A stretch of 64,000 nucleotides of DNA. Source: an uncultured bacterium. Its GTDB lineage: Bacteria; Babelota; Babeliae; Babelales; Vermiphilaceae. Positions 30,679 to 62,939 of this stretch are shown piece after piece; position 1 is the first letter of the stretch; every line of letters starts with the position of its first letter. The stretch spans positions 192,001 through 256,000 of the forward strand of contig OY970172.1 in NCBI GenBank assembly GCA_963707655.1, read 5' to 3'. The position numbers were made by a program, and so were the translations under genes. Under the pieces are notes generated by a model. It was not told where the DNA came from. It made no database searches and saw only the letters and a list, made by a program, of their open reading frames with translations.

Positions 30679-30883
30679 CTTTGCTTCCTTGTTAATTAAT
30701 TTCATGAGAATTTGTACCATAAAAAAATTGTTGCGCCCGATCAGCTAATTTTGCAAATTCAGTTTTATCCAAGCTGTTCAATTCGTCAGGGGTTACCTAG
30801 TTGACAAATCCAGAGGCTATGATATTAAATTCACCATAAGTCTACAGCATATCAAAACTGTGCTTTGCTCTTTCAATATAAAT

Positions 30884-31870
30884 CTATAAAGTTCCAAACA
30901 ATTTCATTCTTCTTTGACTGATTCTAGTTTCAGTTGTTTGCAATTCATCTTCAGTCATTTTGTCGATCCATGCAAAAGCTGAATTGCATTGCCTGCTTAT
31001 AAATTGGCAATTTGTAGGCGAATAGCCCTTATCCACATCAATCCTATCTAACTGTAAGCCTTTAATATGACCATTCTGCAAAGCCCAAGATTCAAAGTTT
31101 TCAAAATTTTCCAACCATTCTGCACACATTACAATTCCTCTGCCGCCATATCTCGCGTATGATTTATCAGAAGATAAATAGCACCTACGTCTTACATGAT
31201 TCCAAGTTACGTAAAGGGATGTTTTTGATTTTCCATGCGTTCTTAATCGCTCTTTAGTATAACAACCACAGCTTTTTGTCGAACTTCTTTCTAGCGATGA
31301 CGTTGATGCAAAAACCACAGTGCCACAGCGACATGAGCATTGCCAAATAAAACTACCCCATTTATCTGCGTGAGAAAATTTAATAACCTTTAAATAAAAA
31401 AATACCTTATCTATCAGTCTGTTTTCAGTTTGGTACCTACTACAATCAGCGCATTGTTTTAATCCATTTCTTTCTTTTCCTGGATTAAGCGCATGCAAAG
31501 TAGTTTTAAATAAATTTCCACATTCGCATTTTACCTCCCAAGGGGGACGGGAATCAATACCAGATGATCTTTCACCAACCAATAGCTGAACGACGGTAAG
31601 CTTACCAAATTGCTGTCCTTCAATTCTTTTGCGTGGTTCATAACTACAGGAGCTTCCGCATCCTTTTGTCTTTTTCGATCTTAAATCGCCACCGGAGATT
31701 GCTTTCTGCTTGCCGCATATACATTCACACATCCACATTATATGCTTGCCTCTATTTGAGGCACGATGTAATACCTTTAAATAAGTAAAAGTTTTTCCTG
31801 ATAAATTAATAAATTTGCCCACGTTTGGTATCTCCGTATCTACTAAAGGCCATATTTGCAAAACATACAA
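30884..31870 (-). CDS. Phage-type HNH endonuclease-like protein with three Cys-rich W.C.C.CG repeats
   Basis: Three G.L.V...W.C.C.CG-type repeats, then YGGRGI.MC.EW and LDRIDVDKGYSP.NC. Confidence 0.8.
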   Translation of the reverse strand: MYVLQIWPLVDTEIPNVGKFINLSGKTFTYLKVLHRASNRGKHIMWMCECICGKQKAISGGDLRSKKTKGCGSSCSYEPRKRIEGQQFGKLTVVQLLVGERSSGIDSRPPWEVKCECGNLFKTTLHALNPGKERNGLKQCADCSRYQTENRLIDKVFFYLKVIKFSHADKWGSFIWQCSCRCGTVVFASTSSLERSSTKSCGCYTKERLRTHGKSKTSLYVTWNHVRRRCYLSSDKSYARYGGRGIVMCAEWLENFENFESWALQNGHIKGLQLDRIDVDKGYSPTNCQFISRQCNSAFAWIDKMTEDELQTTETRISQRRMKLFGTL

Positions 31871-33148: not shown

Positions 33149-33447
33149 GGGAAACCTTTCTTCAAAAAATAGATATAAAAAAATTAAACTATTGAGAGTT
33201 CCAACTCTCTTAATTGCTTGTTCCTCACAAGCTCAAGAACTATGATTCTAACTATAGGTCTTGGGAAACATTTTTAATTTGCTTATGTATTTAGCGGGAG
33301 GCTTCCACCTTTTAACTATCTGCATTTGCAAAACTTAAGGATGTCATGTGACTTTCTGCTTAAATATTCAGAAATCACAAAACTAAATTTACAGTAAAAG
33401 TGTATGCTTTTCAAGCTATTTTTTAATAGTTATAAGATTTTGTTTTC

Positions 33448-33475
33448 TTGCATTCTTCAACAAATTATTTATAAT
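33448..33475 (+). promoter_or_regulatory. Sigma70-like promoter of rep module
   Basis: TTGCAT-N16-TATAAT; copy 2 has TTGCAA-N16-TATAAT with diverged spacer. Confidence 0.6.
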
Positions 33476-33519
33476 TTCCACAAAATGTAATGAATGTATC
33501 TGCATCCAAGGAGAGCAAC

Positions 33520-33618
33520 ATGAAATTCATCTTACCTATCAGGGCGCATAGCCTGATCGCATCCATCCACGAGCAAAGGCTCACGTATTGCGATGCATCA
33601 GACATGCTCGTGCAATAG
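33520..33618 (+). CDS. Conserved 32-aa leader ORF (MKFILPIRAHSLIASIHEQRLTYCDASDMLVQ)
   Basis: AAGGAG RBS; same start, stop and length in copy 2. Confidence 0.55.
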   Translation: MKFILPIRAHSLIASIHEQRLTYCDASDMLVQ

Positions 33619-33708
33619 CATCCAATCCAAAACAATCCCTATTAATTTTTAAATATGTGCTGATCAAAAATCGGCATGATGATACCTGTGTATCCTTGAA
33701 AGTTTTTT

Positions 33709-34032
33709 ATGATGGTAAGAAAAGTACCTGTTAAAGTTGTTCTTAACGCCGAAGATCGTAATAGGCTTGTTGCCTTCTTCTTGTTGCTTGCCGAAATGAA
33801 TAAAGAAGTAAACGGTAATAACAAGAAAACTAAAAAAGCAAAAACAAAGCCAAAAGATCAAACTAAAATAACCTCCATCTGGGGTGGGGCCTGCCTTAAA
33901 AGCAGGTCTTTTTATTTCCTTACAACTCCTGTATCTTTAAGGGCGGCCCATATAGCTAGCACCCGTAAAAGGTACATCAATGATCGACACAGTTGTTTTA
34001 ACACTCGGCTCGGATATATTCAGCATCATTAA
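33709..34032 (+). CDS. Small basic protein upstream of rep
   Basis: Homologous ORF at 54384; helix followed by Lys-rich stretch. Confidence 0.55.
   Translation: MMVRKVPVKVVLNAEDRNRLVAFFLLLAEMNKEVNGNNKKTKKAKTKPKDQTKITSIWGGACLKSRSFYFLTTPVSLRAAHIASTRKRYINDRHSCFNTRLGYIQHH
33888..33917 (+). terminator. Terminator-like hairpin upstream of rep (possible attenuator)
   Basis: ggcctgc-loop-gcaggtc followed by tttttattt; conserved at 54565-54596. Confidence 0.6.
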
Positions 34033-35010
34033 CCCAGATGCCTTCACTCCATCGGCCCACTGGGCATTGCCTAACGCAGCCCTTGCTCAGGCGGCCATCC
34101 AATCAAAGCAAAACCCAACCAAAAAAGAATTATTTGCCGGCATTTACAAGCCACGGCTCACATTAGCGCGCCGCATCAACTTGCATGGCCGCAGTGAGAT
34201 TATGCTTAAAATTGAATTGTCTTTGCCCAAGCTCTTTTTCGGCAATAATTTTGATGAGCTGCGCCTGAAAGATTTTAAACCGCTTATGCAAAAATTAGTT
34301 ATCATGTTGGAAGGCATGGGTGTTCGGATTACCGCTGCCGATCTTGCGCGGGCAGACGTACTGGCCGTCCATTACTCCAAAAATATAGCTCTCACGGATG
34401 GCTCAACTCCATACCATTACATCACCAAAATAAAAGAAGCCAACATCAAGTTATCGCTGGACACCAACCAAACGGATTACCGCAATGAAGGCCATAGCTA
34501 CAAATGGCACTGTAACTCATATGAGGTGGTATTTTATGATAAAATTCGCGATCTGGAAAAAGCAAAAAAGAGCGAAAAGCGCGCACTGGAAAAAGATAGC
34601 GCATTGCAGCTAAATTTGTTTGATACATTGCAAAAAAGACAGAAGCTGGAAATATTGCGCATGGAAGTTCGTTTAAATAAGCGGCAGAAAATAAAAACAC
34701 TTTTGCAAGCACTCAAGATTAAGCCCATCCTCACCTTGCAGGGTCTATTTAAAGCGGCCATATCAAAAAAGGTATTATTGCATTACTTGGATGAATTGGA
34801 GCGTAAGAGAAGCCCGTTGCTTGATTACAAGGCAACTGACAAGGGATTGTTAACCGCTTTGATATTTAATAATCCGGAGCTCGGCCCCAAACAGATTTTA
34901 CAATTGTATGGATTAAAGAAAGCGCTGGAACTGGTGGATGCTCGGGAGCTGAGAGTGATGTTTGCCAAATACAATGCGCGCAGCTGGTATCGGCTCATGG
35001 CTGATGCAAA
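33980..35010 (+). pseudogene. C-terminally truncated gpII/X-like replication initiator
   Basis: Nearly identical to 54658-55782 until MADA, then reads into antisense oxidase sequence. Confidence 0.8.
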
Positions 35011-44608: not shown

Positions 44609-44661
44609 AAATTATTTTTCTTGATTAACATAAAACTAACTGAAACCTACCAAGCAGAGCG

Positions 44662-44784
44662 CTGCGTAGCAGGAGCGAAGACTGACGGCATCACATCCGC
44701 GCGTTCAGTATGAATCAAATAGAATATAGCTTTAGTTTGCAAAACATTCAAACGCTGTTTTCATCAAAATGCACTGCTACATAG
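44662..44784 (+). mobile_element. Relic attachment junction (REP-like flank plus recombinase-tail homologue)
   Basis: 23-bp identity with 52925-52947, then *RHHIRAFSMNQIEYSFSLQNIQTLFS similar to WRYLIDAFGTHDVEFSFSLQSIQTVFS. Confidence 0.75.
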
Positions 44785-45316
44785 TATTGGGCGAATACAG
44801 TTTAATGAATTTGCCCTCAACGGCAAAGCGCCCGTGGCCCCAATGGTGAAGTGTATGCTGGCGCTTGCGCGAAGTAGTGATCCACGCTGCCACTACTTCA
44901 ACAATAAAAATGTTGTATTTTGAAACCAGCGTTGTATTTACTACTGTGCACTCAAGGTTAGCAAAGCACTCTCTAATCAACGGCGGCTGTACAATGCTTG
45001 CCGGATCTTGGGTCAGTTCAAATTTTTTAAACTTGTCGATTTTCTTGCCTGAACAGTTGCCTACTCCCACGACCTGTTTTGCCAATTTTGCATCAGGAAT
45101 GTTGATGACGCATTGCCCGGTTGCTTTGAACAAGGAAAAAGAATAATCTTCGCTGCCCATCACCATCGCAATGAGCGGCGGCGTAAAATCAACCATCATG
45201 TGCCACGCCATAGTCATAACATTTGGCTTACCATCTTTTTGCGTGGTAACCATAATGACCGGTCCAGGTTCAATGAGCTGATATACTTTGGATAGAGATA
45301 ACTTTTTTTTCTTCAT
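44777..45316 (-). CDS. Flavin reductase-like (flavoredoxin) protein
   Basis: GPV..VTT, NVMT.AW, INIP, SG..IDKF, LEC.V. Confidence 0.9.
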   Translation of the reverse strand: MKKKKLSLSKVYQLIEPGPVIMVTTQKDGKPNVMTMAWHMMVDFTPPLIAMVMGSEDYSFSLFKATGQCVINIPDAKLAKQVVGVGNCSGKKIDKFKKFELTQDPASIVQPPLIRECFANLECTVVNTTLVSKYNIFIVEVVAAWITTSRKRQHTLHHWGHGRFAVEGKFIKLYSPNTM

Positions 45317-49100: not shown

Positions 49101-49396
49101 AGCGCGTTTCCATCTTGACCGGCATCAAGCGAGAAGATTTAATTCCCGATAAGATCATACACGCGGATTTCCTCAGATAATGCCACTATTATCTTATCGT
49201 CGCCAGTAAAAGAACATTCTTCAGCGTTAGCAAGACCTTCAATTACCGATTTTCCGGATGTGCAATAATTTTATAAAATGAGAGATGGCTCAGTAATCGA
49301 TATAAATAAAAAAAACCACCGTTTTACGGGTGGGTTTGTAATTTCATTAAGGTGTGACAGATATTGAGCACACGGCGACCTTGTGGCGGAATAATC

Positions 49397-49777: not shown

Positions 49778-50028
49778 GATAAGCCTCATTTAAGGTTTTT
49801 TAACCGATTAGATTATGATTTACTGATTGTTTTTATAGTAACAGACATTATGAAATAAGTATAAAATAAATCTATTTGAATTATCTTTGCTCTGGTGGGG
49901 GATAGGGCAAATAAGGGTATAACCAAAAAACCCACCAATTGGCCTCAGGAAATTTGTCTTGTTCTTGATAACACGTATACGCCTTTGTTATAACATCAAA
50001 TATGATATTTTTTACCACATAAAGGAGA

Positions 50029-51363
50029 ATGTATATGATGCATGGTGCAAGCCTGTTCGGCGAAAACCTTATGACGCAAGAGCTCTGGCAGAGACGCTCA
50101 GTAAAAAATCGAAGGTCTCCTTTCTTTAAAAAAAGTTTTTTGTGTGTTGTTCTATCTCTGATGTCCCCAGTATTAGGTTCATCATGTCCTGACACTACGC
50201 CATGGAGTGCGCCGGTTAATGTAAGTAATTCTGGTAATGTCACCAGCAGTATATTCTCTGCGGCAACATCTGCCGGTTTCATGGCCGTGTGGGCAGACTC
50301 TTCAAATAACGCTAATTATAGTTTTTCAAGCGATGGTGCTAGTTGGCAAAGCGGTTTAGTCACTCCTGCCGTAGGGGACGTTGCTCCTTCTTCAGATGTT
50401 TTTGTTGCCGGTAATGCCAGTGGCTTTCTGGTAGCATGGATGGATAGTTCAAATAATGGCTGGTCAAGCTTTTCCGCTAATAATGGCAGTAGCTGGAGTC
50501 CCGCGATTCAAATAAATGGTTCGTTAGCACTGGATCCCAACGCTGATATTTACGTCAGCGCGGGAACGGGCGGTTTTGTCGCCACCATGATAGCAGGGGG
50601 TGGATTCGGCAGCGATAACGCGTATGTAAGTTTTTCGACCGGCACTTCAGGGTGGAGTATTCCTACGCAAGTTACTACCGATGGGTCGGTATCTAACTAT
50701 GCAAATCCGAGCACATCATCAGGAAGAGGATTTGTGTGCGCCGATGTTGTGGGTAATACCTGTATGTTGACGTGGCTCACGGTTAGCTACTCAACAGCTT
50801 CAGCTTTCTTTACCTCAATTAATCCTTTTTCATCAACTACCGTTTATCCTATAGTGAGCGTAGGTTATTATGAAAGCGCTGCTATTGTGGCATCACTCAA
50901 TGGCTATTATATGGAAACTGCACGAGCGAATATAAGTGGTACTAATGGGGTAAATAATTATTCTGTGTGTACGAGCCCGGCTAACTGGGCGGCATTTTCA
51001 GTCACTTTATCAACAGCACCACGCAATCCTGGTGTTGGCCCTTGGGTTGCTGCTAATCCTACTGGCTTTATGTCGAGCTGGGCTGAGACGGCTGATCAGG
51101 CGAGTTATCCGGGCACGCCTATGTGGATCTTCTCCAGTAACAATGGCTTCAACTGGACACCGGTATGTTCTATTTTGCAGTCACCATCATCTACCACCAT
51201 ACTTGGTCCTGTTGGCTTGAGCGGCAATTATAAAGGCTTTGTATCTACGTGGGTAGATAGCGCTGATTCAAATGCGTATGCATCATTTTATTCTGCTCCC
51301 TCATCAACCGGGTATGATGTATTTGTAGAATTACTGCAACAAAAATATGGCCCGCTCTTATAA
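50029..51363 (+). CDS. Secreted Ser/Gly-rich Asp-box (BNR) beta-propeller-like protein
   Basis: Repeats SSDGASW, SANNGSSW, SSNNGFNW, each preceded by GF.A/S.W; start uncertain. Confidence 0.78.
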   Translation: MYMMHGASLFGENLMTQELWQRRSVKNRRSPFFKKSFLCVVLSLMSPVLGSSCPDTTPWSAPVNVSNSGNVTSSIFSAATSAGFMAVWADSSNNANYSFSSDGASWQSGLVTPAVGDVAPSSDVFVAGNASGFLVAWMDSSNNGWSSFSANNGSSWSPAIQINGSLALDPNADIYVSAGTGGFVATMIAGGGFGSDNAYVSFSTGTSGWSIPTQVTTDGSVSNYANPSTSSGRGFVCADVVGNTCMLTWLTVSYSTASAFFTSINPFSSTTVYPIVSVGYYESAAIVASLNGYYMETARANISGTNGVNNYSVCTSPANWAAFSVTLSTAPRNPGVGPWVAANPTGFMSSWAETADQASYPGTPMWIFSSNNGFNWTPVCSILQSPSSTTILGPVGLSGNYKGFVSTWVDSADSNAYASFYSAPSSTGYDVFVELLQQKYGPLL

Positions 51364-51376
51364 AAGGAAATTTATA

Positions 51377-52798
51377 ATGAAGACACTTTTTACACAAAAA
51401 ACTTTATTCACCTTTCTGGCACTCGCGAGCATAGGAACCCAAATGCTCCGCGCAGATTGCTACGCACATTCTATTTTTGTACCACGTCAACTCGCTTATA
51501 ATCCTATGTATGAAGATGCGCTTGTTTTTGAAGAATATGCGCATATGGATGATAAATTTTTGCTCTCAGTTAAACCCATTTATACGCAAACCGTTGGTAA
51601 ATCGATAAAAAAATATTTTAATATCGATCACTTGTGCTCCATGAATGTGCAAGAAAATGGCTCGGGAAATATTGACTCGCTTTGGTTCCAAGTTATTTCT
51701 GCTCCGGGCGCCTTCTATTCTTCAACATTGTCATTTAATCCGGTGCAAAAAACAGCGGGTGCTTTAGTTTATTTTGCCTGGATGTTTTCTGAAGATTGTG
51801 CATTAACCGTAAACACGGCGTTTATCAACCGAAAAACAAATATGCATATCTGCGAGACAAACATTGCTAATCTTGGGCAAGCGCCCGGATTTGCCACGAT
51901 CAGCCAATCGTTCATGAATCCAGCTATGCTGTATGGCAAAATTTGTGGCGAGCGATCAAAAGGGGGTGTTGATGATCTGCAAATCAAATTGCTCAAGAAT
52001 TTTTATTTGTGTGAGGATGAATCACTATTCGCAGATATCTATGCATTAGTGGGAGTGCCAACAGGACACGGCTCACGAGCAGTGTATCTCTTTGAACCGC
52101 TGGTGGGATCAAATCATGCGCAATTTGGCCTTGGTCTTAACGCTGAAAAATCATTTGACTGCCTGTGTGATGGGTTTTCGTTATACGGTGAGCTTAAATG
52201 GCGTTATGCTTTTAAAGCAACAGAAACCAGATCATTTGATATGGCGCCAAATGGCCAATGGTCGCGCTATATGCTGTTCACCACACCAACGGCAGATGCA
52301 ACACCATTTCCGGCGATTAACGATCTTACGTTTAAAGCACAGGTTACCCCGCGCAACTCATTCGATCTGCTGGTAGCGGCACACGCCGAACTGTGCAGAT
52401 TCAGTTTTGAACTCGGTTACAATTTCTGGTATCGCCAATCAGAAAAAGTGTGCCCCTACATCTGCTTGCCTCCCGTTGGTATTGCCGATCTGGTAGGTAT
52501 AGCGCAATTGCCGGCACCGGTGACTATCACTACCTCAAGCAAGGCAACTATTTCTGAAGGAGTGTATCCAAATCAATATCAAATGCCGCGTGATGCAGCA
52601 TACACCGTGGTAACTGCAGCAAATATTAATCCCTGCAGTGGCGCACAAGCAGCTTCAATGGCAAACGGCGTATTTGGTTCAATCGGTTGTCAATGTAATT
52701 GCTGGGATTTCGGCCTCAATGCATCATACGAAGGGGCCGCAAATAGCAATACCGCAAGTGTTGCTTCAGTATGGGTGAACATCGATTTTCTGTTTTAA
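51377..52798 (+). CDS. Probable outer-membrane beta-barrel protein
   Basis: Signal peptide, alternating beta-strand pattern, C-terminal ...VNIDFLF. Confidence 0.7.
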   Translation: MKTLFTQKTLFTFLALASIGTQMLRADCYAHSIFVPRQLAYNPMYEDALVFEEYAHMDDKFLLSVKPIYTQTVGKSIKKYFNIDHLCSMNVQENGSGNIDSLWFQVISAPGAFYSSTLSFNPVQKTAGALVYFAWMFSEDCALTVNTAFINRKTNMHICETNIANLGQAPGFATISQSFMNPAMLYGKICGERSKGGVDDLQIKLLKNFYLCEDESLFADIYALVGVPTGHGSRAVYLFEPLVGSNHAQFGLGLNAEKSFDCLCDGFSLYGELKWRYAFKATETRSFDMAPNGQWSRYMLFTTPTADATPFPAINDLTFKAQVTPRNSFDLLVAAHAELCRFSFELGYNFWYRQSEKVCPYICLPPVGIADLVGIAQLPAPVTITTSSKATISEGVYPNQYQMPRDAAYTVVTAANINPCSGAQAASMANGVFGSIGCQCNCWDFGLNASYEGAANSNTASVASVWVNIDFLF

Positions 52799-52813
52799 GT
52801 GATAGGTACAACT

Positions 52814-52846
52814 AAAAAAAGACCGCTTTTAAAGGCGGTCTTTTTT
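52814..52846. terminator. Bidirectional intrinsic terminator
   Basis: aaaaaaagaccgc-ttttaaag-gcggtctttttt. Confidence 0.88.
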
Positions 52847-53023
52847 ATTGAGTAATCTAATTAAGAAACTGGTTCTAATTGGCTCCTTCCAGAGTTGCTA
52901 AGAACTGGTCTGCCAGACGAAGCCCTGCGTAGCAGGAGCGAAGACTGGCGGTACCTCATTGACGCGTTCGGTACGCATGATGTTGAATTTAGCTTTAGCT
53001 TACAAAGCATCCAAACGGTATTT

Positions 53024-53896
53024 TCATTGCTTGGAGTTGGCAATCCCACATAGTATTCCTAAACAAAAGGGATAAAAAACTTGAAAAAGTGTAACGGGAC
53101 CGCGACACTTAAAGAATTGGGCTTTTTCTTTTGGTCCGTATTCAGTAGCTACGCCATAAAGAATAATGTTTTGAATTTGTTTATCTTTAAAGATCACTTT
53201 CCATAGGGCGCCACCGCTTAAACCACAAAAAGATTTAGGAACTTTATTTTTTGTTTGAATCGGGCAAGTAATATAATCTAAGGTAACCATAAGATTAATA
53301 GGAGCTTCATAGGAACAGGTCCCATATTCAATAGTACTGGGTATCACTATATTGGATCCACCTTTATAAACTACAATTATATTATAAGGTGGTGTTGAAA
53401 CTCCATATTGTCTTTTTTTACCTTCAGCTACAACACCATTAATAACCCAAATGCCTGCTTTACTATCATCTACAGTGAAAGGTTTATGTTCTTGGGCGGA
53501 TTGGTCCATGTCCCAAAACCTTTTGCCCAAACTTTCAATGACTTCATAGGCGCTTGGACGCAGAGCAAAAAAAGCTAAATCAACTCCAACACCCGGAGCA
53601 AGTGCAGGTATTCTAATGATGTTCTCAAATTGTAAAATTTTTGAATCTGGAGCCGAATATAATATATGCACATAAGAAAGGTTTTTATCTATGAAAATTT
53701 TTGCTACGTGATCATTAGTTAACAATCCTTTTACTCCACCAATTATAACAAATGTTCCACTACCAAGCTCTGTATCTTTTATTATGCTGGAGGGACTAAA
53801 TAATGCAGTACTATATATGCCAGTAGCTTGAGCTACACTGTTTTTATAATAATCTTGTTCTTCAAGTGTCATTGTTGATTCGTTTTTTTCATTCAT
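53024..53896 (-). CDS. Trypsin-like serine protease
   Basis: GSG, LLTNDHVA (His), VDLAF (Asp), GLSGGALW (Ser). Confidence 0.8.
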   Translation of the reverse strand: MNEKNESTMTLEEQDYYKNSVAQATGIYSTALFSPSSIIKDTELGSGTFVIIGGVKGLLTNDHVAKIFIDKNLSYVHILYSAPDSKILQFENIIRIPALAPGVGVDLAFFALRPSAYEVIESLGKRFWDMDQSAQEHKPFTVDDSKAGIWVINGVVAEGKKRQYGVSTPPYNIIVVYKGGSNIVIPSTIEYGTCSYEAPINLMVTLDYITCPIQTKNKVPKSFCGLSGGALWKVIFKDKQIQNIILYGVATEYGPKEKAQFFKCRGPVTLFQVFYPFCLGILCGIANSKQ

Positions 53897-54031
53897 GAGT
53901 TTTGCCTTTTGTTACTTATTCATTAAAGATTTAAAATTGTATAAAGGTTAAGGAGTTACCCAAACAATTGCAATTAAGCTATGGAATTTTTGTTACACCT
54001 CTAAAAGAACCACATATACTTTCTCAAAGAG

Positions 54032-54099
54032 CAATTTTATAACACGAACCATTCAAACGATATTCTATTGGGCCATGATTGCGAACCAATAGAACGTAA
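54032..54099 (-). repeat. ~65-bp repeated site A (inverted relative to B and C)
   Basis: Reverse complement reads ttacgttctattggttcgcaatcatggcccaatagaatatcgtttgaatggttcgtgttataaaattg. Confidence 0.88.
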
Positions 54100-54194
54100 T
54101 TCAAAAGAAAAGGTGATTTGTTCTTGCAATTCATTACAAATCACCTATAATCTCCAGCAATGTAATGAATGTATCTGCACCCAAGGAGAGCACA

Positions 54195-54293
54195 ATGAAA
54201 TTCATCTTACCTATCAGGGCACATAGCCTGATTACATCCATCCATGAGCAGTGGCTCACGCGTTGCGATGCATCGGACATACTCGTGCAATAG
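54195..54293 (+). CDS. Conserved 32-aa leader ORF (MKFILPIRAHSLITSIHEQWLTRCDASDILVQ)
   Basis: AAGGAG RBS; homologue at 33520. Confidence 0.55.
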   Translation: MKFILPIRAHSLITSIHEQWLTRCDASDILVQ

Positions 54294-54383
54294 CACCCAC
54301 ACCCAAAACAATCCCTATTAATTTTTAAATATACGCTGATAAGAGATCGGCATGGATGATACCTGAATCCTTGAAAGTTTTTT

Positions 54384-54752
54384 ATGATGGTAAGAAGAAA
54401 AGTACCTGTTAAAGTTGTTCTCAATGCTGAAGAACTCAATAAAATGGCTATGTTCTTTGCAGTTCTTGTTGCGGTTGACAGACGAGTCAATGGTAATAAA
54501 AACAAAGCTAAAAAAGCAAAAATGAAGCCAAAAGACCAAACTAAAATAACCTCCATTTGGAATGAGGCCTGCCTAAAAAGCAGGTCTTTTTATTTCCTTA
54601 CAACTACTGTATCTTTAAGGGCAGCCCATGAAAGTAGCGCCCGTAAAAGGTACATCAATGATAGACACAGTTGTTTTAACACTCGGCTCGGATATATTCA
54701 GCATCACCGATCTGGATGCCTTTACTCCATCAGCTCATTGGGCATTGCCTAA
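54384..54752 (+). CDS. Small basic protein upstream of rep
   Basis: Homologue of 33709-34032. Confidence 0.55.
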   Translation: MMVRRKVPVKVVLNAEELNKMAMFFAVLVAVDRRVNGNKNKAKKAKMKPKDQTKITSIWNEACLKSRSFYFLTTTVSLRAAHESSARKRYINDRHSCFNTRLGYIQHHRSGCLYSISSLGIA

Positions 54753-55782
54753 TGCAGCCCGTGTTCAGCCGGGCACCCAATCAAAACAAAACCCAACCAA
54801 AAAAGAGTTATTGGCCGGCATTTACAAGCCTCGGCTCACACTCGCGCGCCGCATCAATTTGCATGGCCGCAGTGAGATTATGCTTAAAATTGAGTTATCT
54901 CTTCCCAAGCTATTTTTCGGCAACAATTTTGATGAACTGCGCCTGAAAGATTTTAAACCGCTCATGCAAAAATTAGTTACGGCGCTAGAGAGCATGGGTG
55001 TTCGTGTTACTGCTGCCGATCTTGCACAGGCAGACGTACTGGCCGTCCATTATTCTAAAAATATTCTTCTTAAGGACGGTTCAACTCCATACCACTACAT
55101 TAATAAAATAAGAGAAGCCAATATCAAGCTATCGCTTGATACGAACCAAACGGATTACCGCAATGAAGGCCATAGCTACAAATGGCACTGCAATTCATAT
55201 GAAGTGGTATTTTATGACAAAATTCGCGATCTTGAAAAAGCAAAGAAGAGCGAAAAGCGCGCGCTGGAAAAAGATAGCGCATTGCAGCTGAATCTATTTG
55301 ATATGTTGCAAAAAAGGAAAAAGCTGGAAATATTGCGCATGGAAGTGCGCCTGAATAAGCGGCAAAAAATAAAACAACTTTTGCAAGCACTCAAGATTAA
55401 GCCCATCCTCACCTTGCAGGGCTTATTTAAAGGTGCTATATCAAAAAAGGTATTATTGCATTACTTGGATGAATTGGAGCGTAAGAGAAGCCCATTGCTT
55501 GATTACAGGGCTACGGATAAGGGATTGCTAACCGCTTTGATATTTAATAACCCTGATCTTGGTCCCAAACAGATTTTACAATTGTATGGATTAAAGAAGG
55601 CGCTTGAAGTGGTGGATGCTCGCGAGCTGAGAGTGATGTTTGCCAAATACAATGCACGCAGTTGGTATCGGCTCATGGCTGATGCAAATAAGGTTAAACT
55701 GCCAATGAAAAATAGCTCATTCAGCGAAATACGAAAACATTTAATTAAATTTAAGCCATTGAGGTACAATTCATGGCTTTAA
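54658..55782 (+). CDS. Phage/plasmid replication initiator, gene II/X-like (rolling circle)
   Basis: MIDT start, IELSLPKL.FGNN, FYDK..D, LRMEVRL motif order. Confidence 0.72.
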   Translation: MIDTVVLTLGSDIFSITDLDAFTPSAHWALPNAARVQPGTQSKQNPTKKELLAGIYKPRLTLARRINLHGRSEIMLKIELSLPKLFFGNNFDELRLKDFKPLMQKLVTALESMGVRVTAADLAQADVLAVHYSKNILLKDGSTPYHYINKIREANIKLSLDTNQTDYRNEGHSYKWHCNSYEVVFYDKIRDLEKAKKSEKRALEKDSALQLNLFDMLQKRKKLEILRMEVRLNKRQKIKQLLQALKIKPILTLQGLFKGAISKKVLLHYLDELERKRSPLLDYRATDKGLLTALIFNNPDLGPKQILQLYGLKKALEVVDARELRVMFAKYNARSWYRLMADANKVKLPMKNSSFSEIRKHLIKFKPLRYNSWL

Positions 55783-56468
55783 AATCACCTGCACAAAAAA
55801 TTATGTCCTCTCTTGCTATGTTCAAATTTTCAAGAACAGAATTGCGTTTTATGCGAGATGAAGCGGTGAATTGGGAAGAATTGAGTAAACAAATAATGGA
55901 AGGGACAAATTGTATTCCGATTGGAAAGACAAAATCTGATTATGCAAAAGTAATTGAGGCGATTCGCTTGGCTGCTTGCGGCTATCATGTTGAGATTATG
56001 GGACAGGCTTTAGAAGAATATATTTCTGAAAAAAACTTGAGTAATATTGCTTCTTTATATGAGTTAGAAAAATATTTATTTCTTCTTAGATGTGCTTTAT
56101 TGCACACAGAGGGGGAGTTGCTGGCTAAATGGCAATTTAATAGAAACAATCCAACTAAAAAAGAGATAAATGCTATAAAGAAACTACAAGCAGGAGGTTT
56201 AAAAATTAAAATCCCTGTTATAAAAGTGGAAGGAAAAGACGATTGTTATGATGAAAAATCAGAAATCTATAAGAAATTAACATTTAAAGTATATCTTAAA
56301 AAAAATAACAATAATGGAACCACCCATCCAATAGTTAGATTAAATGAAGGATTGATATATAAACTGATGCTTTTAAGTGATCACGTTTGCACTATTACAA
56401 AAAAGAAAAATCCATCTACATTACTTAAATATTTGAACCGAACTACTGTGAAAGAAAGAACAATATAA
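55773..56468 (+). CDS. Hypothetical protein coupled to rep
   Basis: 231-aa ORF, GAGG RBS, overlaps rep stop. Confidence 0.7.
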   Translation: MALKSPAQKIMSSLAMFKFSRTELRFMRDEAVNWEELSKQIMEGTNCIPIGKTKSDYAKVIEAIRLAACGYHVEIMGQALEEYISEKNLSNIASLYELEKYLFLLRCALLHTEGELLAKWQFNRNNPTKKEINAIKKLQAGGLKIKIPVIKVEGKDDCYDEKSEIYKKLTFKVYLKKNNNNGTTHPIVRLNEGLIYKLMLLSDHVCTITKKKNPSTLLKYLNRTTVKERTI

Positions 56469-56486
56469 GAATAAGAAATAAAAGCG

Positions 56487-56553
56487 TTACGTGCTATTGG
56501 TTCGCAATCATGGCAAAACAGGATTCCGTTGATTGGTTCGTGTTATAAAATTG
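56487..56553 (+). repeat. Repeated site B
   Basis: ttacgtgctattggttcgcaatcatggcaaaacaggattccgttgattggttcgtgttataaaattg. Confidence 0.88.
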
Positions 56554-58069
56554 GATTGATCTTGTGTGATAAGTGTTGCAAGATTTTATACATCGCATAA
56601 GTATCTAGCTGGCAATACTGCCTTAAATTGTTGGCGATTTCATTTTTTTCAGTTTCGGTGAGGGTTGCTCCCAGCATGGCAAACCATTTTTCGGAAGCGG
56701 CTCCGCCATCTTGAATCCCTAATGTAGCGTAAGACAGTTCGGGTACCAAAACAGGTAATATATTCTTGATAGATGTCTTTCCATTAAAGCCTGCGGCTAC
56801 ATAATGTTGTTTTTTAAAGATTTCTTCTAAATCAAAAAAACGATTATTTAAATTCTGTAAAAACGCTTCATATTCGGGATGACGTTCGCCTAATCCATTA
56901 TTTATCATTTGTTCAAAACTTTTATGCCAAACAATAATACTGCCAACATGACCTATCAGATCCATAAGCTTCTTAATTATAATCTCTGACGGATCAGAAT
57001 TAAATTCATGAAGATATTCATAATGTGCTGGCTCAGAATCAGTATCAGTTAACACATATAAAGAAAATTGAAATGGAAGTTGTTGATATGGTGTAAAGCC
57101 GTTAAAAAGCGGGATGGGGGAAGAATAGCTTTCATAATCTAGGAAGTATAATGGATACACCAGCTTATCCAATTCATGCTTGATTGCTATGGAATCAAAA
57201 ATTAGTTTTTTAAATTTGTAAGCATTCACCTGATTTTTTTGTATGTCAGTCAATTCAAAATTGTCAGGAATGTCATCAATATTCAAAATATTGGCATTAA
57301 TTAACGGGGTAAGTTTTTTTTGATTGATTCTGGCGATATCATGCACCGAGACAGCTGGTACATATGCATGTGAATAGCCAAATGACTTACAGTGTGTACT
57401 GCGTCCTTTATAAATACAATTACATGCTAAGGCTTCTTGTTCATTTTGTAACAAATCAATTTTCGCCTGCTGCATTCTGATTCTTGTTCTAGGTTCTCGT
57501 TCTTTCACCTTATCGGTTATATTACTGATAATAAAAAGCTCATTAATATCAATATCATGTATCCGAACATAATCTTTGTTAAGATGAATGATGAAGATAT
57601 CTTCTAGTTCAATTCCCTTCTCTTGCAATACTATTGCCTGGAAGGTAGCATCTTCAATGTGATCATTTTCATCACTAGTTTCTTCTAAAGAATTTTTCCC
57701 TTTTATTTCATAAAGTTTCCACTTGCCGCTTGTTGCATTGTATTCAAGCACGTCATTCCGTACTAAAAATTTGTCATGATAAAACGTTGCCTGAAACAAT
57801 ATGGGTGTCTTTTGTTCTATGTGTGATTGGGTAAGAAGAGCGGCATCATTACCATGCTTGTCGATCAGGATAGCTTGAGGGAACAATTGTTGCGCCCACG
57901 ATTCGGCCAAATTTCCTTTATCCAAAATGCCTTGTTCAAAGGCTGACAATGCAAAAAAATCCTGCAATACATCTTTTTTGTGTAGTCTGAGCCAGGCATT
58001 TTTTGGACATGCCAAATATTCTCGATATATAGTTTTATGAACAAATTTATTCATATCAATAACCGCCAT
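56543..58069 (-). CDS. DUF2779-domain protein (RecB/Cas4-like N-terminus plus RNase H-like domain)
   Basis: CPK..W, D.L...EIK, YFLDYES, PYQQLPFQFS, SIK..LP, YCQLDT. Confidence 0.85.
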   Translation of the reverse strand: MAVIDMNKFVHKTIYREYLACPKNAWLRLHKKDVLQDFFALSAFEQGILDKGNLAESWAQQLFPQAILIDKHGNDAALLTQSHIEQKTPILFQATFYHDKFLVRNDVLEYNATSGKWKLYEIKGKNSLEETSDENDHIEDATFQAIVLQEKGIELEDIFIIHLNKDYVRIHDIDINELFIISNITDKVKEREPRTRIRMQQAKIDLLQNEQEALACNCIYKGRSTHCKSFGYSHAYVPAVSVHDIARINQKKLTPLINANILNIDDIPDNFELTDIQKNQVNAYKFKKLIFDSIAIKHELDKLVYPLYFLDYESYSSPIPLFNGFTPYQQLPFQFSLYVLTDTDSEPAHYEYLHEFNSDPSEIIIKKLMDLIGHVGSIIVWHKSFEQMINNGLGERHPEYEAFLQNLNNRFFDLEEIFKKQHYVAAGFNGKTSIKNILPVLVPELSYATLGIQDGGAASEKWFAMLGATLTETEKNEIANNLRQYCQLDTYAMYKILQHLSHKINPIL

Positions 58070-58160
58070 GAAAGAAATGATAAATATCGCCTATTGAATA
58101 TATTATGCTACTTGCAAATAAAGTACAGCGATTATTACCATTTTTCATGTTTATTCCGAG

Positions 58161-58216
58161 TTTCGTCCATTGGTTCGTAATCATAGCCCAGCAGAATTCC
58201 GTTGATTGGTTCATGT
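58161..58216 (+). repeat. Repeated site C
   Basis: tttcgtccattggttcgtaatcatagcccagcagaattccgttgattggttcatgt. Confidence 0.85.
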
Positions 58217-58308
58217 CACTATGATAATTGTTATCGAAATAGCACTCTTGTGATAGACTGCTACGTTAAAAATACTCTCTTTTAAACAAATAAATTGAGG
58301 TAAAAAAT

Positions 58309-58758
58309 ATGTGCATATTTAGCTGGATATTTAAAAAAACAAAAGATACACCCACTATAAGTGTAGAGCAATTTGTATCTGAATCATTAGTACAAATTTG
58401 CAATGGAATTCGAAGCGCACAAACAAAAATAACCAGAATTCCTTTTGGAACAGATGAAGATAAATATTTTGTTCCCTATATTATGCCCTATCCAGCGGGA
58501 GGTAGAAAAGATGAAATATCTCAAATTCACTTTGATATTGCCGTTACTGTCTCGCATGCTAGATCTACCTCACATGTTGAAACCACATCAATCAAGGGCG
58601 CAATAACCACGCCGAATATATTCGTTGTCGAAGGACGTGCTAACTTAGAAAAAGGAAAAACAACTGACCAATCTGCTTCTTCAATTAGTCGCATAACCTT
58701 TTCTATTCCTGTTATTTATCCTCGGATGCCATTGCCTCTCTCTGGGAGTGAAAAATGA
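58309..58758 (+). CDS. Trypco2-like (trypsin co-occurring) small protein
   Basis: FVSESLVQI..GI..AQ, FDIAVTV, SRITFSIPV pattern; ATGA overlap with recombinase. Confidence 0.55.
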   Translation: MCIFSWIFKKTKDTPTISVEQFVSESLVQICNGIRSAQTKITRIPFGTDEDKYFVPYIMPYPAGGRKDEISQIHFDIAVTVSHARSTSHVETTSIKGAITTPNIFVVEGRANLEKGKTTDQSASSISRITFSIPVIYPRMPLPLSGSEK

Positions 58759-60212
58759 AAGCAATCCTTATAGCTAGAGTAAGCACCGAAGAACAAAGAG
58801 AAGCCGGCAATTCATTACCTGCCCAGGTAGCACGGCTCGAAAGATACTGCCAAACAAAAGGCTTTAAGGTTGCACAAATTTGTAGCTTTGATGAAAGCGC
58901 CTATACCAATGATCGCTCAGAGTTTGACCGTATAATTGATATCATTTTGGCTCAAACGGAAAAGACCGCTGTTTGCTGCGATAAAGTGGATAGGCTTTCC
59001 CGGAATGTGTTTGATAAGCGTATCTCCATCCTTTATGAAAGAGCTTTAAATGATCAGATAGAACTGCATTTTGTATCCGATGGCCAGATCATTACCAGCC
59101 GTATCTCTGCCGTGGAAAAATTCCAATTCAGCATCAGTCTGGGCTTAGCGAAGTACTATTCAGATGCCATCAGCGATAACGTCAAGCGTGCATTGGAACA
59201 AAAGCTCCGCAGGGGAGAATGGCCAGCCATGGCTCCCTTTGGCTATAAAAATATCACTAAGGCTGATGGCAATACCGATATCATTATGGATGAGTATGAA
59301 GCGCATATTATAAGAACCATATTCGAGTACTATGCCACGGGTGGCTATTCAATCGATCTGCTGCGTATAAAAATTAAAAATGACTATGGGCTCGATTGGG
59401 CCAAGGGGTATGTCTGGAAGATTCTTAACAACCATTTCTTCCACGGTATCATGATCGTAAAAGGGAAGTCATATCCCCATCGCTATCCAACCATCATCAC
59501 CCAGGCGCTCTTTGATCAGGTGCAAAAAGTAAAAGCCAGCTTTAATAAACAGCCGGTTAAATTTGCCGGGCTTCCTTTCATGTATCGCGGCCTTATCCGC
59601 TGTGAGCAGTGTGGATGCGCCATAACCCCCGAGAAGCACAAGGGGCACGTCTATTACCATTGTACTCAATATAACGGCAAGCATGGGGCAAAATGGCTGC
59701 GGGAAGAAAAGCTTACGGAACAACTGGTGGAGATTTTTAAAAGTCTTCAAATGCCAAAAGATGTATTGTTGCAAATAACCGAGACACTCAATGCGGTTCA
59801 TGAAGATAAAGTTGAGTTTCATGAGAAGGAATTTGATAAGCTCACTGCCGAACAGAAAATGATCTCCAAGATGATCGACAATCTCTACCTTGATAAACTG
59901 AAGGGGAGAATTACTGACAGCGAGTATGACAGATTTTACACATCGTTTAGAGATCAAATCACCGATATCAGTATCCGTCTTGAGAAATTACAAGAAGCCG
60001 AAGACAACTATTATGTTACGGCAAAATACCTACTGAATCTGGTTAATAGAGCTTTTGATGTATTTATGAGTTCTGAAGTGGAAGAAAAAAGGCAATTAAT
60101 CAAGTTTATACTATCGAACCTGAGACTAGATGATGAGAAACTGCTCTGGGACAGTGCAAAGCCATTTGATCTGATCCTAAATTGTTCGGATCGACAACAA
60201 TGGCGGAGCTGA
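58755..60212 (+). CDS. Large serine recombinase (integrase)
   Basis: ARVST catalytic Ser, DKVDRLSR, APFGY, CEQCG...YYHC zinc ribbon, coiled coil; stop lies inside tRNA-Asp. Confidence 0.95.
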   Translation: MKAILIARVSTEEQREAGNSLPAQVARLERYCQTKGFKVAQICSFDESAYTNDRSEFDRIIDIILAQTEKTAVCCDKVDRLSRNVFDKRISILYERALNDQIELHFVSDGQIITSRISAVEKFQFSISLGLAKYYSDAISDNVKRALEQKLRRGEWPAMAPFGYKNITKADGNTDIIMDEYEAHIIRTIFEYYATGGYSIDLLRIKIKNDYGLDWAKGYVWKILNNHFFHGIMIVKGKSYPHRYPTIITQALFDQVQKVKASFNKQPVKFAGLPFMYRGLIRCEQCGCAITPEKHKGHVYYHCTQYNGKHGAKWLREEKLTEQLVEIFKSLQMPKDVLLQITETLNAVHEDKVEFHEKEFDKLTAEQKMISKMIDNLYLDKLKGRITDSEYDRFYTSFRDQITDISIRLEKLQEAEDNYYVTAKYLLNLVNRAFDVFMSSEVEEKRQLIKFILSNLRLDDEKLLWDSAKPFDLILNCSDRQQWRS

Positions 60213-60278
60213 TGGGACTCGAACCCACGACCTTCCGCGTGACAGGCGGACGCTCTAACCAAACTGAGCTACAGCTCC
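60201..60278 (-). tRNA. tRNA-Asp(GTC)
   Basis: ggagctg/cagctcc, tccgc-ctGTCac-gcgga, GTTCGAG, CCA. Confidence 0.96.
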
Positions 60279-60300
60279 AAAAAAAGCTTTAAAAAGAGAA

Positions 60301-60376
60301 TGGCTCCTCGGGCAGGACTCGAACCTGCGACCTAACGATTAACAGTCGTTTGCTCTACCAACTGAGCTACCGAGGA
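60301..60376 (-). tRNA. tRNA-Asn(GTT)
   Basis: tcctcgg/ccgagga, aacga-ctGTTaa-tcgtt, CCA. Confidence 0.96.
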
Positions 60377-60407
60377 ACACTATTTCAAATCGCATTGATT
60401 TTTTTAA

Positions 60408-60484
60408 TGGTGGGCGGCACGGGATTCGAACCTGTGACCCCCAGTTTGTAAGACTGGTGCTCTAACCAACTGAGCTAGCCGCCC
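60408..60484 (-). tRNA. tRNA-Val(TAC)
   Basis: gggcggc/gccgccc, ccagt-ctTACaa-actgg, CCA. Confidence 0.96.
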
Positions 60485-60627
60485 CAATCAATGGACTTCA
60501 AAGATTTTAAATGAAAAGAACGTGAAAGTCAAAAGCTTTCTTAGTAAAATTAGTAAGAAAAATATAATATTTTTTGAGGCATTTGGGATGCACGATGAAA
60601 AATGCCATTTTTATCTCGTTATCATGC

Positions 60628-61455
60628 CTATGCTGTGGGCATGTATGAGCCGTCATGTTCAATAATTTGGCAATATTTTATGGCGCGCATATCAATCAAA
60701 GGCTCGGTGGTAATGGTGTAAAATAAGCCCTCTGTTTGGTATGAGCGTATTTTACCCAGAGCAAACCCTTTGGGGAAAATAAGGCCTTCACCACTTGAAA
60801 GAAGCAAGTCTTCATAGGCAATATGCGCTAAGTGGCTTACTTTGGTTAATGCGCCGGCATTCAGATCATTGAGGCCATTATAAATGCCACAGGCTTTTGT
60901 TTTGGCACAAGCAGTTGCAACTTTGCAGCTTTTATCGGTAACCAATATCACTTTGCTATACAGTGGATATACATCAACCACGCGGCCCACCAGGCAATTA
61001 TTATAAATCGCCACCATATCGGTTTTGATTCCTTTGCGTGAACCGGCGTCTATCAGAAAATAATGAGACTGTTCTGAAAATTGCTTGGTTAATATTTGGG
61101 CAATAAGAATTTTTTTATTAGTATAACGTTTTTTGAAATCGGTCAGTTCATCGATCTGGGTGTGATAATCGAGTAAGGCATTTAATTCGATATTTTCGTG
61201 CCACGCATTATCACGCTCAACGGTGGCCTTTTGCAGCGCTAGAGTTAATTCATCAACGGTGCGTCGCCGATCAAAAAAATTCTTCAAAGGAGCTACCGCG
61301 CCTCGTTGCATGATCAAGATTGGATACATAAAATAGGAAGAAGAATATTCAAGAAATCCGGGGGAAAAGTAAATGAGGCGGTCAACCACAAAATAGGAGA
61401 GGGCGACAACGATGACGCTCAACAAAAATCCTTTTTTTATGCTTCCTTTTTTCAC
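60628..61455 (-). CDS. mreC: Rod shape-determining protein MreC
   Basis: N-terminal TM, coiled coil, IDAG...G, LVGRV, SSG.G.IFPKG..LG. Confidence 0.9.
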   Translation of the reverse strand: MKKGSIKKGFLLSVIVVALSYFVVDRLIYFSPGFLEYSSSYFMYPILIMQRGAVAPLKNFFDRRRTVDELTLALQKATVERDNAWHENIELNALLDYHTQIDELTDFKKRYTNKKILIAQILTKQFSEQSHYFLIDAGSRKGIKTDMVAIYNNCLVGRVVDVYPLYSKVILVTDKSCKVATACAKTKACGIYNGLNDLNAGALTKVSHLAHIAYEDLLLSSGEGLIFPKGFALGKIRSYQTEGLFYTITTEPLIDMRAIKYCQIIEHDGSYMPTA

Positions 61456-61461
61456 TCTCTT

Positions 61462-62901: not shown

Positions 62902-62939
62902 GTAGCAATTAAGGACGGGTGGCGTGAGTTGTTGCGGCG

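Follow-up and report, generated by a model that had tools for sequence, protein, structure and literature searches.

The stretch of DNA analysed here, 64,000 nucleotides (nt) of contig OY970172.1 (positions 192,001 to 256,000; assembly GCA_963707655.1) from an uncultured bacterium of the Babelota and hereafter called the window, carries a 7,255-bp element at positions 52952-60206 that is integrated at the 3' end of a tRNA-Asp gene. With a probability of roughly 0.7, it is an integrative element that brings its own module for rolling-circle replication and belongs to a large, undescribed family. The core of this family consists of three genes in the same direction, coding for a basic protein of ~55 amino acids, Rep and an integrase, with swappable cargo between and beside them. 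An earlier note on the window had described a 7.3-kb element with a Rep, a large serine integrase and variable cargo; its ends are now fixed at 52952 and 60206 by an empty site and a displaced tRNA trailer, and its large serine recombinase has 485 amino acids and three Pfam domains. The genome that carries the window (G000) is a single contig of 1.09 Mb with 41% G+C, and homologues of the window proteins bear the source labels Candidatus Babeliales or Dependentiae. The ends of the element and its attachment sites (att) are defined by four features, given like all others in window coordinates:

52886..52945, minus strand: displaced 3' trailer of tRNA-Asp (host DNA; left arm of the former attB), which fits the trailer family and the empty site of a second genome, G001
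52946..52951, no strand: attL core TGGCGG, a copy of the complement of the tRNA-Asp CCA end, read from the sequence and identical to 60201-60206
60201..60206, no strand: attR core TGGCGG, where the homology with the G001 empty site begins exactly at 60201
60201..60278, minus strand: tRNA-Asp (GTC), the integration target, intact

The element, a region of reduced G+C, is flanked by a porin-like gene with a two-way terminator (52816-52850) on one side and by a minus-strand tRNA cluster for Asp, Asn and Val on the other, and these three tRNAs were the sole matches above threshold in an Rfam scan of 48000-64000. In G001, which belongs to the same genus and has no Rep match, the tRNA-Asp-Asn-Val cluster is uninterrupted, and homology with the window starts at 60201. 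The empty site reads ...GGCGAAGAC-TGGCGG-AGCTGATGGG, the stretch preceding the homology being ...CCTTGGCGAAGAC-TGGCGG, and the left junction in the window reads ...GAGCGAAGAC-TGGCGG-TACCTC. The sequence GCGAAGAC-TGGCGG abuts tRNA-Asp in G001 and is found at 52938-52951 of the window with unrelated sequence beyond it. In addition, the 60 nt to the left of the attL core fit a trailer located directly 3' of 20 of the 38 tRNA genes in G000. Because of the empty site and the match to this trailer family, 52886-52945 is identified as the old tRNA-Asp trailer and TGGCGG as the common core. The insertion, by a large serine integrase, took place at the extreme 3' end of tRNA-Asp, with the crossover within TGGCGG (the complement of CCGCCA); it left the tRNA intact, whose former trailer is now found at the left junction, at a distance of 7.3 kb.

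The common core comprises 6 nt here and 6-10 nt in related loci, without a long direct repeat, as in large serine recombinases, and the inferred attP arms show an imperfect dyad symmetry when read by eye from the sequence. A BLAST search for a direct tRNA repeat upstream of Rep in related loci gave nothing outside a single locus (L064), because the att cores are this short. The likeness to the L064 junction had suggested a left end at 52885 (TTGGC/TCCTTC), which was ruled out by the empty site and the tRNA trailer. Left-flank synteny with another genome (G005) retained the porin-like neighbour, but the tRNA after the porin-like gene is absent there. The trailer after the CCA of the 20 tRNA genes extends over ~45 nt and reads, in RNA sense, G(Y)CTWCGC, a variable hairpin, GCTWCGKCTGGC, ~4 nt and GCCAG. 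In many related loci, and for different tRNAs, it also makes up the left arm of attL. It may act as a signal for processing or termination, and integrases may in addition use it as a shared landing pad.

The integrase gene itself is divided between the two ends of the element:

58755..60212, plus strand: large serine integrase, integrated (truncated) form, 485 amino acids, ending in WRS and a stop codon
52946..53053, plus strand: split-off 3' end of the integrase gene, consisting of W, R, 33 further codons and a stop (tail YLIDAFGTHDVEFSFSLQSIQTVFSLLGVGNPT), within an open frame at 52895-53053

The protein combines the catalytic resolvase, recombinase and zinc-ribbon domains of large serine recombinases (Resolvase PF00239, 1.5e-20; Recombinase PF07508, 1.5e-09; Zn_ribbon_recom PF13408, 2.5e-07) and matches phrog_95 'integrase' at 3.4e-66. 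Its N terminus, MKAILIARVSTEEQ, has an R-x-S motif, which we take to be the serine nucleophile motif. The last 12 nt of the integrase open reading frame (ORF) overlap the 3' end of tRNA-Asp. The reading frame crosses attP, and integration strips the last 33 codons from the gene and leaves them at the opposite, far left end. There the frame remains open after the core as W-R-YLIDAFGTHDVEFSFSLQSIQTVFSLLGVGNPT-stop and is homologous to the tail of L064. In that locus a ~95-nt copy of the integrase 3' end, located upstream of Rep, runs through TGGCGG in frame into 32 further codons and thereby preserves an uninterrupted junction of integrase, core and tail.

A profile made from the window and L064 tails and iterated three times over all short frames of the related loci collected 113 fragments with a consensus near WRxLVDxFRNxEIEFxxSLxxIQTVFxxF. 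Rep occurs together with an integrase ending in a tRNA in 54 loci, and 34 of these have the tail upstream of Rep; among the 20 without it, 15 offer under 4 kb of sequence upstream. In 28 of the 34 loci, the start of the tail repeats the last eight bases of the tRNA 3' end (at least 6 of 8), in 27 at exactly the first tail codon (offset 0), and the terminal TGG of the tRNA is in frame with the integrase in 33. The tail varies at third codon positions (CTA/TTA/CTG/ATA, GTT/GTA/GTG), which points to a constraint on the protein and not solely on a binding site. Judged from these reading frames, the circular form should encode an integrase of 517 amino acids, as opposed to the 485 amino acids of the integrated form, and 77 of the 120 best database homologues of the integrase are 484-486 amino acids long.

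In loci of the type found in the candidate phyla radiation (CPR), the tail is found on one ORF with a second, more distant serine recombinase located upstream, whose end it forms, as would fit elements in tandem. Several of these CPR-type elements (L066 5368-10032; L048, L061, L063, L065, L073, L171) have a SpoVG-like ORF that ends at the Rep start, as well as a helix-turn-helix (HTH) protein and the second large serine recombinase ~3-4 kb upstream; they are probably tandem elements.

The replication module is represented by one gene:

54658..55782, plus strand: Rep, a predicted rolling-circle initiator of the Rep_trans/gpII fold, 374 amino acids

Its ORF covers 54628-55782, and an alignment of 21 homologues placed the true start at M11 (54658). 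The motifs SLPKLFFGNNF, FYDK and LRMEVRL are present in the gene II/X-like order that had been pointed out before. An AlphaFold2 model based on the 21 sequences (pLDDT 78.2, pTM 0.79) resembles the Rep_trans initiators 4cwe, 4cwc and 4cij with Z scores of 9.1, 8.8 and 8.2, 213-240 aligned residues and root mean square deviations of 4.5-4.8, and the same three structures rank first in Foldseek with probabilities of 0.85-0.92. The next structural group is formed by the TATA-box binding proteins (TBPs) with Z scores of 5.9 or below. According to the excerpted text of Carr et al. 2016 (PMC4797284), TBP is the sole protein with a sheet topology similar to that of the Rep_trans fold, and in the structural alignment the Rep model indeed has a crescent-shaped, TBP-like beta-sheet catalytic domain. 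The proposed replication-initiator fold is hence borne out at the level of the model.

Phage_CRI (PF05144), the N-terminal domain of the filamentous-phage gpII, was matched by distant Rep relatives with ~35% identity: 9 of 45 diverse ones at E ≤0.01, which matched no other family, and 2 of 15 from an earlier set above the Pfam curated cut-off. The Pfam link of the window Rep is therefore transitive. The window Rep is regarded as a distinct subfamily of the Rep_trans/Phage_CRI superfamily and not as a Pfam member. The residues Y186-D-K188-x-x-D191 and R227-x-E229-x-R231 (numbered from M11) are invariant in the 45 diverse members, and D161 and D3 nearly so. In the part of PMC4797284 concerned with RepD, Y191, K193 and E196 are catalytic and E214, D142 and D46 bind the metal; Rep Y186, K188, D191, E229, D161 and D3 occur in the same order as RepD Y191, K193, E196, E214, D142 and D46, with the Arg at -2 replaced by Val in Rep, and would correspond to them by motif order rather than by residue-level superposition.

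Rep relatives are numerous: of 8,000 scored candidates, 1,447 reach E ≤0.001, and a library clustered at 50% identity contains 1,012 clusters of them. None was found in phage (50,697 records), plasmid or IMG/VR collections. In one database protein of 485 amino acids (P0236), the first ~245 residues of this Rep family are followed by a recombinase zinc-ribbon C-terminal part; it may reflect a deletion that fused rep to the integrase gene, or an assembly artefact.

The linkage of Rep to the integrase was followed in related loci from a scan of one genome per species (113 stretches, 77 loci kept) and from a metagenome scan (210 stretches, 80 loci kept). These contain 141 distinct Rep copies, 110 of which had 9 kb of downstream sequence or a visible integrase and could be judged. 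In 105 of the 110, a related serine integrase lies downstream on the same strand within 9 kb, separated from Rep by anything from a 60-nt overlap to 8.3 kb. Leaving aside those at contig ends, 52 of 71 full-length integrases terminate within a tRNA gene on the opposite strand (Asp 13, Glu 12, Asn 12, Arg 11, Gln 3, Pro 1), 1 abuts a tRNA and 18 have no tRNA nearby. The association of this Rep with tRNA-targeting serine recombinases, which the earlier note had proposed to survey, is thus strong, and its homologues are not confined to complete prophages but occur in elements of 5-14 kb without virion genes.

The carriers are labelled Babeliales or Dependentiae and also Pace-, Levy-, Woese-, Curtiss- and Saccharibacteria and Peribacteria, some on contigs of 0.5-0.9 Mb. 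Rep was matched in 57 of 261 Dependentiae genomes and 38 of 145 genera, with no match in the other genome of the same genus; carrier genomes have 1-5 matches, many of them with stops or truncations. Mobility is supported by this patchy distribution in Dependentiae, the number of matches per genome and the many decayed copies. In a tree of 73 Reps, 23 rows form a CPR-type clade and 50 a Dependentiae-type clade, each with a branch support of 93. In the former, several of the carriers L046, L048, L049, L052, L056, L061, L062, L070 and L075 are labelled by their submitters as Pseudomonadota, Gammaproteobacteria or Pedobacter. These labels may be wrong or the contigs misbinned, and no transfer between phyla is claimed here.

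Upstream of rep, a leader with a second conserved gene was found:

54124..54151, plus strand: promoter-like TTGCAA-16-TATAAT at the start of the duplicated Rep block, a consensus match alone
54384..54563, plus strand: conserved small basic protein (small ORF, sORF), frame open to 54752, with 44 distinct homologues upstream of Rep
54564..54588, plus strand: GC-rich hairpin followed by a T run, terminator- or attenuator-like, with the same arrangement in many related loci
54610..54619, plus strand: conserved motif TATCTTTAAG, candidate nick site or origin

The sORF homologues precede Rep in both Dependentiae- and CPR-type loci. The protein of ~55 amino acids has no Pfam match and follows the pattern VLSxDxRKRxxxFFxLLIxIDRRVN with a lysine-rich tail; it may be a repressor or a directionality factor. 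In the window, sORF and Rep are in different frames and overlap by 95 nt. On the other hand, an sORF in the Rep frame without a stop in between gives fusion ORFs of ~460 amino acids in the homologues P0012, P0013 and P0093 and the loci L009, L020 and L071. The hairpin before rep recalls the attenuation control of pT181.

In Dependentiae-type loci, the GC-rich hairpin and T run are followed after ~20 nt by the motif (T/G)TATCTTTA(A/G) and then the ATG, and the motif lies 40-52 nt ahead of the Rep ATG in 32 distinct sequences. In 14 sequences from CPR-type loci, ATATCTTT(C/T)A is found exactly 83 nt upstream of Rep, inside the SpoVG-like ORF. Since a Rep as conserved as this one should have a conserved site, TATCTTTAAG is a likely, though so far candidate, nick or binding site of Rep. 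Single sequences often pair the motif with bases just 5' of the ATG; a conserved hairpin at the motif was discarded on the RNAalifold result given below.

The heptamer TCTTTAA in the motif resembles the nick site of Ff gpII, which also speaks for such a role, and an initiator of gpII type next to a serine recombinase is the combination of phiRSM-type inoviruses. The element could accordingly be a remnant or satellite of a filamentous phage whose virion genes were lost or are supplied by a helper. We regard this as quite unlikely. Zot/pI (PF05707) had no match in the genome of the window and was found in 0 of the 79 genomes of its family, as opposed to Rep in 25 of the 79. Elsewhere in the phylum, Zot was matched in 23 of 261 genomes, by weak partial matches inside frames of 430-670 amino acids. 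The phage records and IMG/VR hold no relative, as stated above, and none of 135 cargo ORFs matched a virion family. The inovirus-satellite variant of the earlier proposal thus has no support.

These cargo ORFs were taken from 83 distinct elements and represent 135 of the 160 ORFs between Rep and Int; the 25 omitted were short ORFs, fragments of Rep or Int, and near-duplicates. Different genes occupy this interval in different elements, so that the cargo is variable as had been supposed. Most of it codes for restriction-modification, toxin-antitoxin and nuclease functions. As read from the table, genes for DNA methylases or restriction of types I, II, IIG and III are present in at least 14 loci, and ~10 carry pairs of toxin-antitoxin type (Gp49/HigB-like with an HTH antidote, RelE, or Fic/Doc). 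Other cargo includes HNH, PD-(D/E)XK, Schlafen-AlbA or GmrSD nucleases, large helicases and trypsin-like proteins. The 135 ORFs contained no capsid, terminase, Zot, relaxase or type IV secretion family, and no structural, packaging or type IV secretion family was recognised in the window element either, in agreement with the earlier note, although small coat proteins would escape such searches. Three loci (L055 3417-4304, L154 3689-4585, L060 13814-14353), all from environmental metagenome-assembled genomes, have cargo of the rRNA adenine dimethylase family or the aminoglycoside-2''-adenylyltransferase family by Pfam name alone. The window element has the following genes outside its core:

53024..53896, minus strand: cargo, a trypsin-like serine protease candidate of 290 amino acids without a Pfam match (atlas lead 'Serine protease', score 0.98)
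55773..56468, plus strand: ORF2, 231 amino acids, overlapping the Rep stop by 10 nt
56543..58069, minus strand: cargo DUF2779 protein of 508 amino acids (PF11074, 2.7e-37) with a weak Cas4-like N-terminal part (PADLOC Cas4, 0.0014)
58309..58758, plus strand: ORF149, whose stop overlaps the start of the integrase gene

A homologue of the 290-residue protein is cargo between Rep and Int in locus L019, and a DUF2779 homologue has the same position in L023; like ORF2, each of them occurs in just one other locus and always as cargo. ORF2 had been regarded as an unknown ORF coupled to Rep. The overlap of the two genes is real, but with one other homologue in 5.8 billion proteins, plus L109, ORF2 is a near-orphan cargo gene and not a conserved Rep partner; an atlas search gave no usable match for it. 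ORF149 had no homologue in the 77 related loci.

The lack of transfer genes leads to the question whether the element is moved by others. Relaxases of the Rep_trans family are known from integrative elements of Firmicutes, both conjugative (ICEs) and mobilizable ones (IMEs), and such IMEs can carry serine integrases (parts of PMC6499999, PMC7563843, PMC5704250 and PMC5357655). The Rep-like protein could by analogy be mainly a MOB_T-type relaxase that nicks an oriT for conjugative transfer by a helper, with replication as a secondary role, and an element without transfer genes of its own would suit this. Still, VirB4 (PF03135) was found in 0 of the 261 Dependentiae genomes, the window genome included, other ATPase model families not having been searched, and a VirD4-type coupling protein (PF02534) had no match in the window genome, other model families not having been tried. 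A mobilizable element of this kind is therefore considered unlikely.

Within the element, three repeats were recognised:

54032..54099, no strand: repeat R1, inverted relative to R2 and R3, with two ATTGGTTCG-like words
56487..56553, no strand: repeat R2
58166..58216, no strand: repeat R3

The repeats, 50-68 nt long and unique to the element within G000, each have two ATTGGTTCG-like words 36 nt apart. They bracket the Rep module and the DUF2779 gene, and the 3' end of the integrase contains ATTGTTCG as well. The repeats could serve to bind proteins or be scars left by an exchange of cassettes. As a family-wide feature they were rejected, with 3 weak matches in 77 related loci and no internal repeats in 42 of 54 loci. 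The same counts argue against a rolling-circle transposon, in which the Rep module at 54121-56468 would move alone between the inverted 68-nt repeats R1 and R2. These two are 87% identical and flank sORF, Rep and ORF2, and a duplicated block begins 22 nt after R1. On the other hand, the second copy of the block has no R repeat, and the order of Rep, Int and tRNA is constant. To our knowledge, rolling-circle transposases are HUH enzymes and not Rep_trans proteins. Movement of the module as a transposon is highly improbable.

The duplicated block belongs to one of the decayed copies in the window:

33445..35010, plus strand: second, decayed copy with promoter, leader, sORF and a Rep truncated after residue 344
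30749..30886, plus strand: fossil integrase tail, probable left end of the decayed copy (tail profile E 2.7e-10)
44650..44790, plus strand: fossil attL with tRNA trailer, mutated core TGACGG and tail-coding remnant

The 1,581-nt block at 54121-55688 is repeated at 33445-35010 with 87% identity, and its start coincides with 54122, where the stretch singled out in the earlier note begins. The two copies agree to 87-93% in the promoter-like site, the 230-nt leader and the sORF. The second element (30749-35161) consists of the fossil tail, three minus-strand genes and then promoter, sORF and truncated Rep, with no integrase after Rep; it contains a Cas4-like PD-(D/E)XK protein at 31843-32538 (PADLOC Cas4, 1.9e-11). 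The fossil attL is intergenic with no tRNA or Rep nearby, which suggests a past rearrangement or deletion.

The truncated copy and the two fossil left ends, the stops in many copies of the family, and public-run contigs in which neither circle nor empty-site reads were seen all suit an immobile fossil, an element that no longer moves and whose Rep and Int are decaying or were recruited by the host. In the copy studied here, by comparison, the frames of Rep, sORF and Int are open, as is that of the 35-codon tail, the two window Reps are 92% identical in protein compared with 87% in DNA, and the site is empty in a genome of the same genus. An immobile element is thus very unlikely.

Several results weigh against an integrative element that replicates by rolling circle. 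Circles, which the earlier note had named as a check, were looked for and not seen: terminal overlaps, as expected of circular contigs, were found in 0 of the 80 metagenome loci, and contigs from four public runs, consisting of short, low-depth pieces, contained neither a joint across the element nor a circle. Public runs containing the element numbered five, all with small shares of it and no RNA run among them. A full-length integrase is rare, the tail being present, as seen by eye, on 1 of the 120 best homologues (P0303, 516 amino acids). No recombination directionality factor was identified, and the tandem stacking of elements is not explained by canonical pairing of attP with attB. For Rep, the window protein has no Pfam, PHROG or NCBIfam match and none to PF02486 or PF05144 even at E 10, searches of the Protein Data Bank with profiles of 21 and 45 Rep sequences gave chance-level matches alone, and the correspondence to the RepD residues follows motif order. 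At the candidate origin, RNAalifold on the 32 sequences gave no consensus pair or hairpin around TATCTTTAAG, and the 230-nt leader, tried as a single-strand origin, was rejected as it folds no better than shuffles (z 0.54).

If the element is nevertheless what the model and the linkage suggest, its cycle would proceed as follows. The excised circle would re-join the integrase gene and restore the 517-residue form. Rep would nick one strand at TATCTTTAAG, ~45 nt upstream of its start codon, and bind the 5' end via Tyr186, and a host helicase and polymerase would replicate the circle in the rolling-circle mode. The Rep level would be controlled by the small protein and the hairpin before rep, in analogy to the way copy-control modules act in rolling-circle plasmids. 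The full-length integrase would finally place a copy beside the conserved trailer, at the 3' end of a tRNA.

A wider proposal, which we put forward tentatively and consider doubtful, joins the split integrase, as a sensor of state, with single-stranded DNA copies made by Rep, and regards the family as self-replicating integrative elements that spread by DNA uptake. The 517-residue form, present on the circle only, would integrate, whereas the chromosomal 485-residue form would be inactive or biased toward excision, and the direction would be set by DNA topology and not by a separate directionality factor. The tRNA 3' trailer would serve as a common landing pad, through which one integrase lineage reaches several tRNA genes. 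The elements would spread without conjugation or virions among bacteria of very small size (Dependentiae, Patescibacteria), for whose restriction-modification and toxin-antitoxin genes they appear to be major carriers. Uptake of free DNA as the route from cell to cell is a guess.

The known systems closest to the element share parts of this arrangement; they are compared here with excerpts of the papers cited. The ssrA islands of Dehalococcoides (McMurdie et al. 2011, PMC3146451) have a large serine recombinase, DsiB, adjoining the target RNA gene, integrate at the 3' part of a tRNA-like gene, occur as islands in tandem in which att fossils recur, and carry cargo that varies and includes no transfer genes. 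The 3' end of the integrase gene overlaps att there as well, with the stop codon in the target gene or the neighbouring island, and the authors suggested that the DsiB gene may be whole only on the circle and described the C-terminal part of DsiB as divergent. In contrast, the split-off tail is strongly conserved here, in 113 separate fragments. The islands further differ by their transfer-messenger RNA target, a 20-bp repeat and Chloroflexota hosts. Their module has a second small recombinase and ParB-like, RecF-like and Mom-like genes and no Rep_trans/gpII initiator; of its six genes (DsiB, DsiA, RecF-like, ParB-like, Mom-like, RNA-polymerase-domain protein) the element, with its tRNA target, shares just the large serine recombinase.

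The phiRSM-type inoviruses of Ralstonia likewise combine a gpII-type rolling-circle replicon, a serine recombinase and a tRNA 3' end (excerpt of PMC3218068). They are complete filamentous phages with coat and assembly genes, whereas the element has no virion genes and a large zinc-ribbon recombinase. The phiRSM recombinase is small and resolvase-like. The pT181-family plasmid proteins RepC, RepD and RepDE, the best structural match of Rep, share with it the Y-x-K motif, an acidic residue at +5 and a later R-x-E strand (sections of PMC4797284). Identity to them is ~8%, however, with no Pfam Rep_trans match and ~100 extra residues in the window Rep, and the candidate origin lies upstream of rep and not inside it, on an integrated element and not a free plasmid.

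The Firmicutes IMEs with MOB_T relaxases are also small and integrated, with a Rep_trans-family nickase, sometimes a serine integrase, cargo and no mating-pore genes, but depend on co-resident conjugative elements; the available portions of PMC5704250, PMC5357655 and PMC7563843 do not describe the gene order, the tRNA-end target or the split integrase. Actinomycete ICEs such as pSAM2 share tRNA integration, an excised circle and an element-encoded rolling-circle initiator, and differ by mostly tyrosine integrases and an FtsK-like transfer gene that is absent from the element (portions of PMC3218068 and PMC2440964). The bacterial serine integrase described here loses just a 33-residue tail, in comparison with archaeal integrases of the SSV1 type. 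In these, attP also lies inside the integrase gene, which is split on integration into a tRNA gene, but they are tyrosine recombinases of archaeal viruses and are split in the gene body. The Rep of pSAM2-type elements is of the RepSA type and belongs to the HUH class.

Each part of this arrangement is known elsewhere, namely serine recombinases that integrate at tRNA ends, nicking proteins of the Rep_trans type on integrated elements and integrase genes that overlap att. New are the combination of these parts, the conservation of the split tail, the subfamily of Rep and the range of hosts. The literature searched, on Dependentiae and Patescibacteria with serine recombinase, rolling circle or tRNA islands and on Phage_CRI with serine recombinase, holds no description of the family, as the earlier suggestion of a little-described class had anticipated; a paper of 2025 on islands in Patescibacteria describes one with type I restriction, without mention of integrases or recombinases.

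The unannotated protein family hereby gains a testable function as rolling-circle initiator with a candidate origin, and the related loci are a source of numerous natural attP/attB pairs for large serine integrases directed to tRNA ends. A passing remark on the Dehalococcoides islands becomes directly testable, namely whether the integrase gene is complete only on the circle. If it is true that the tail controls the direction of recombination, this would be of interest for serine integrases as genome-engineering tools. Gene exchange in Dependentiae and Patescibacteria with their tiny genomes is poorly understood, and the family provides a concrete vehicle for it.

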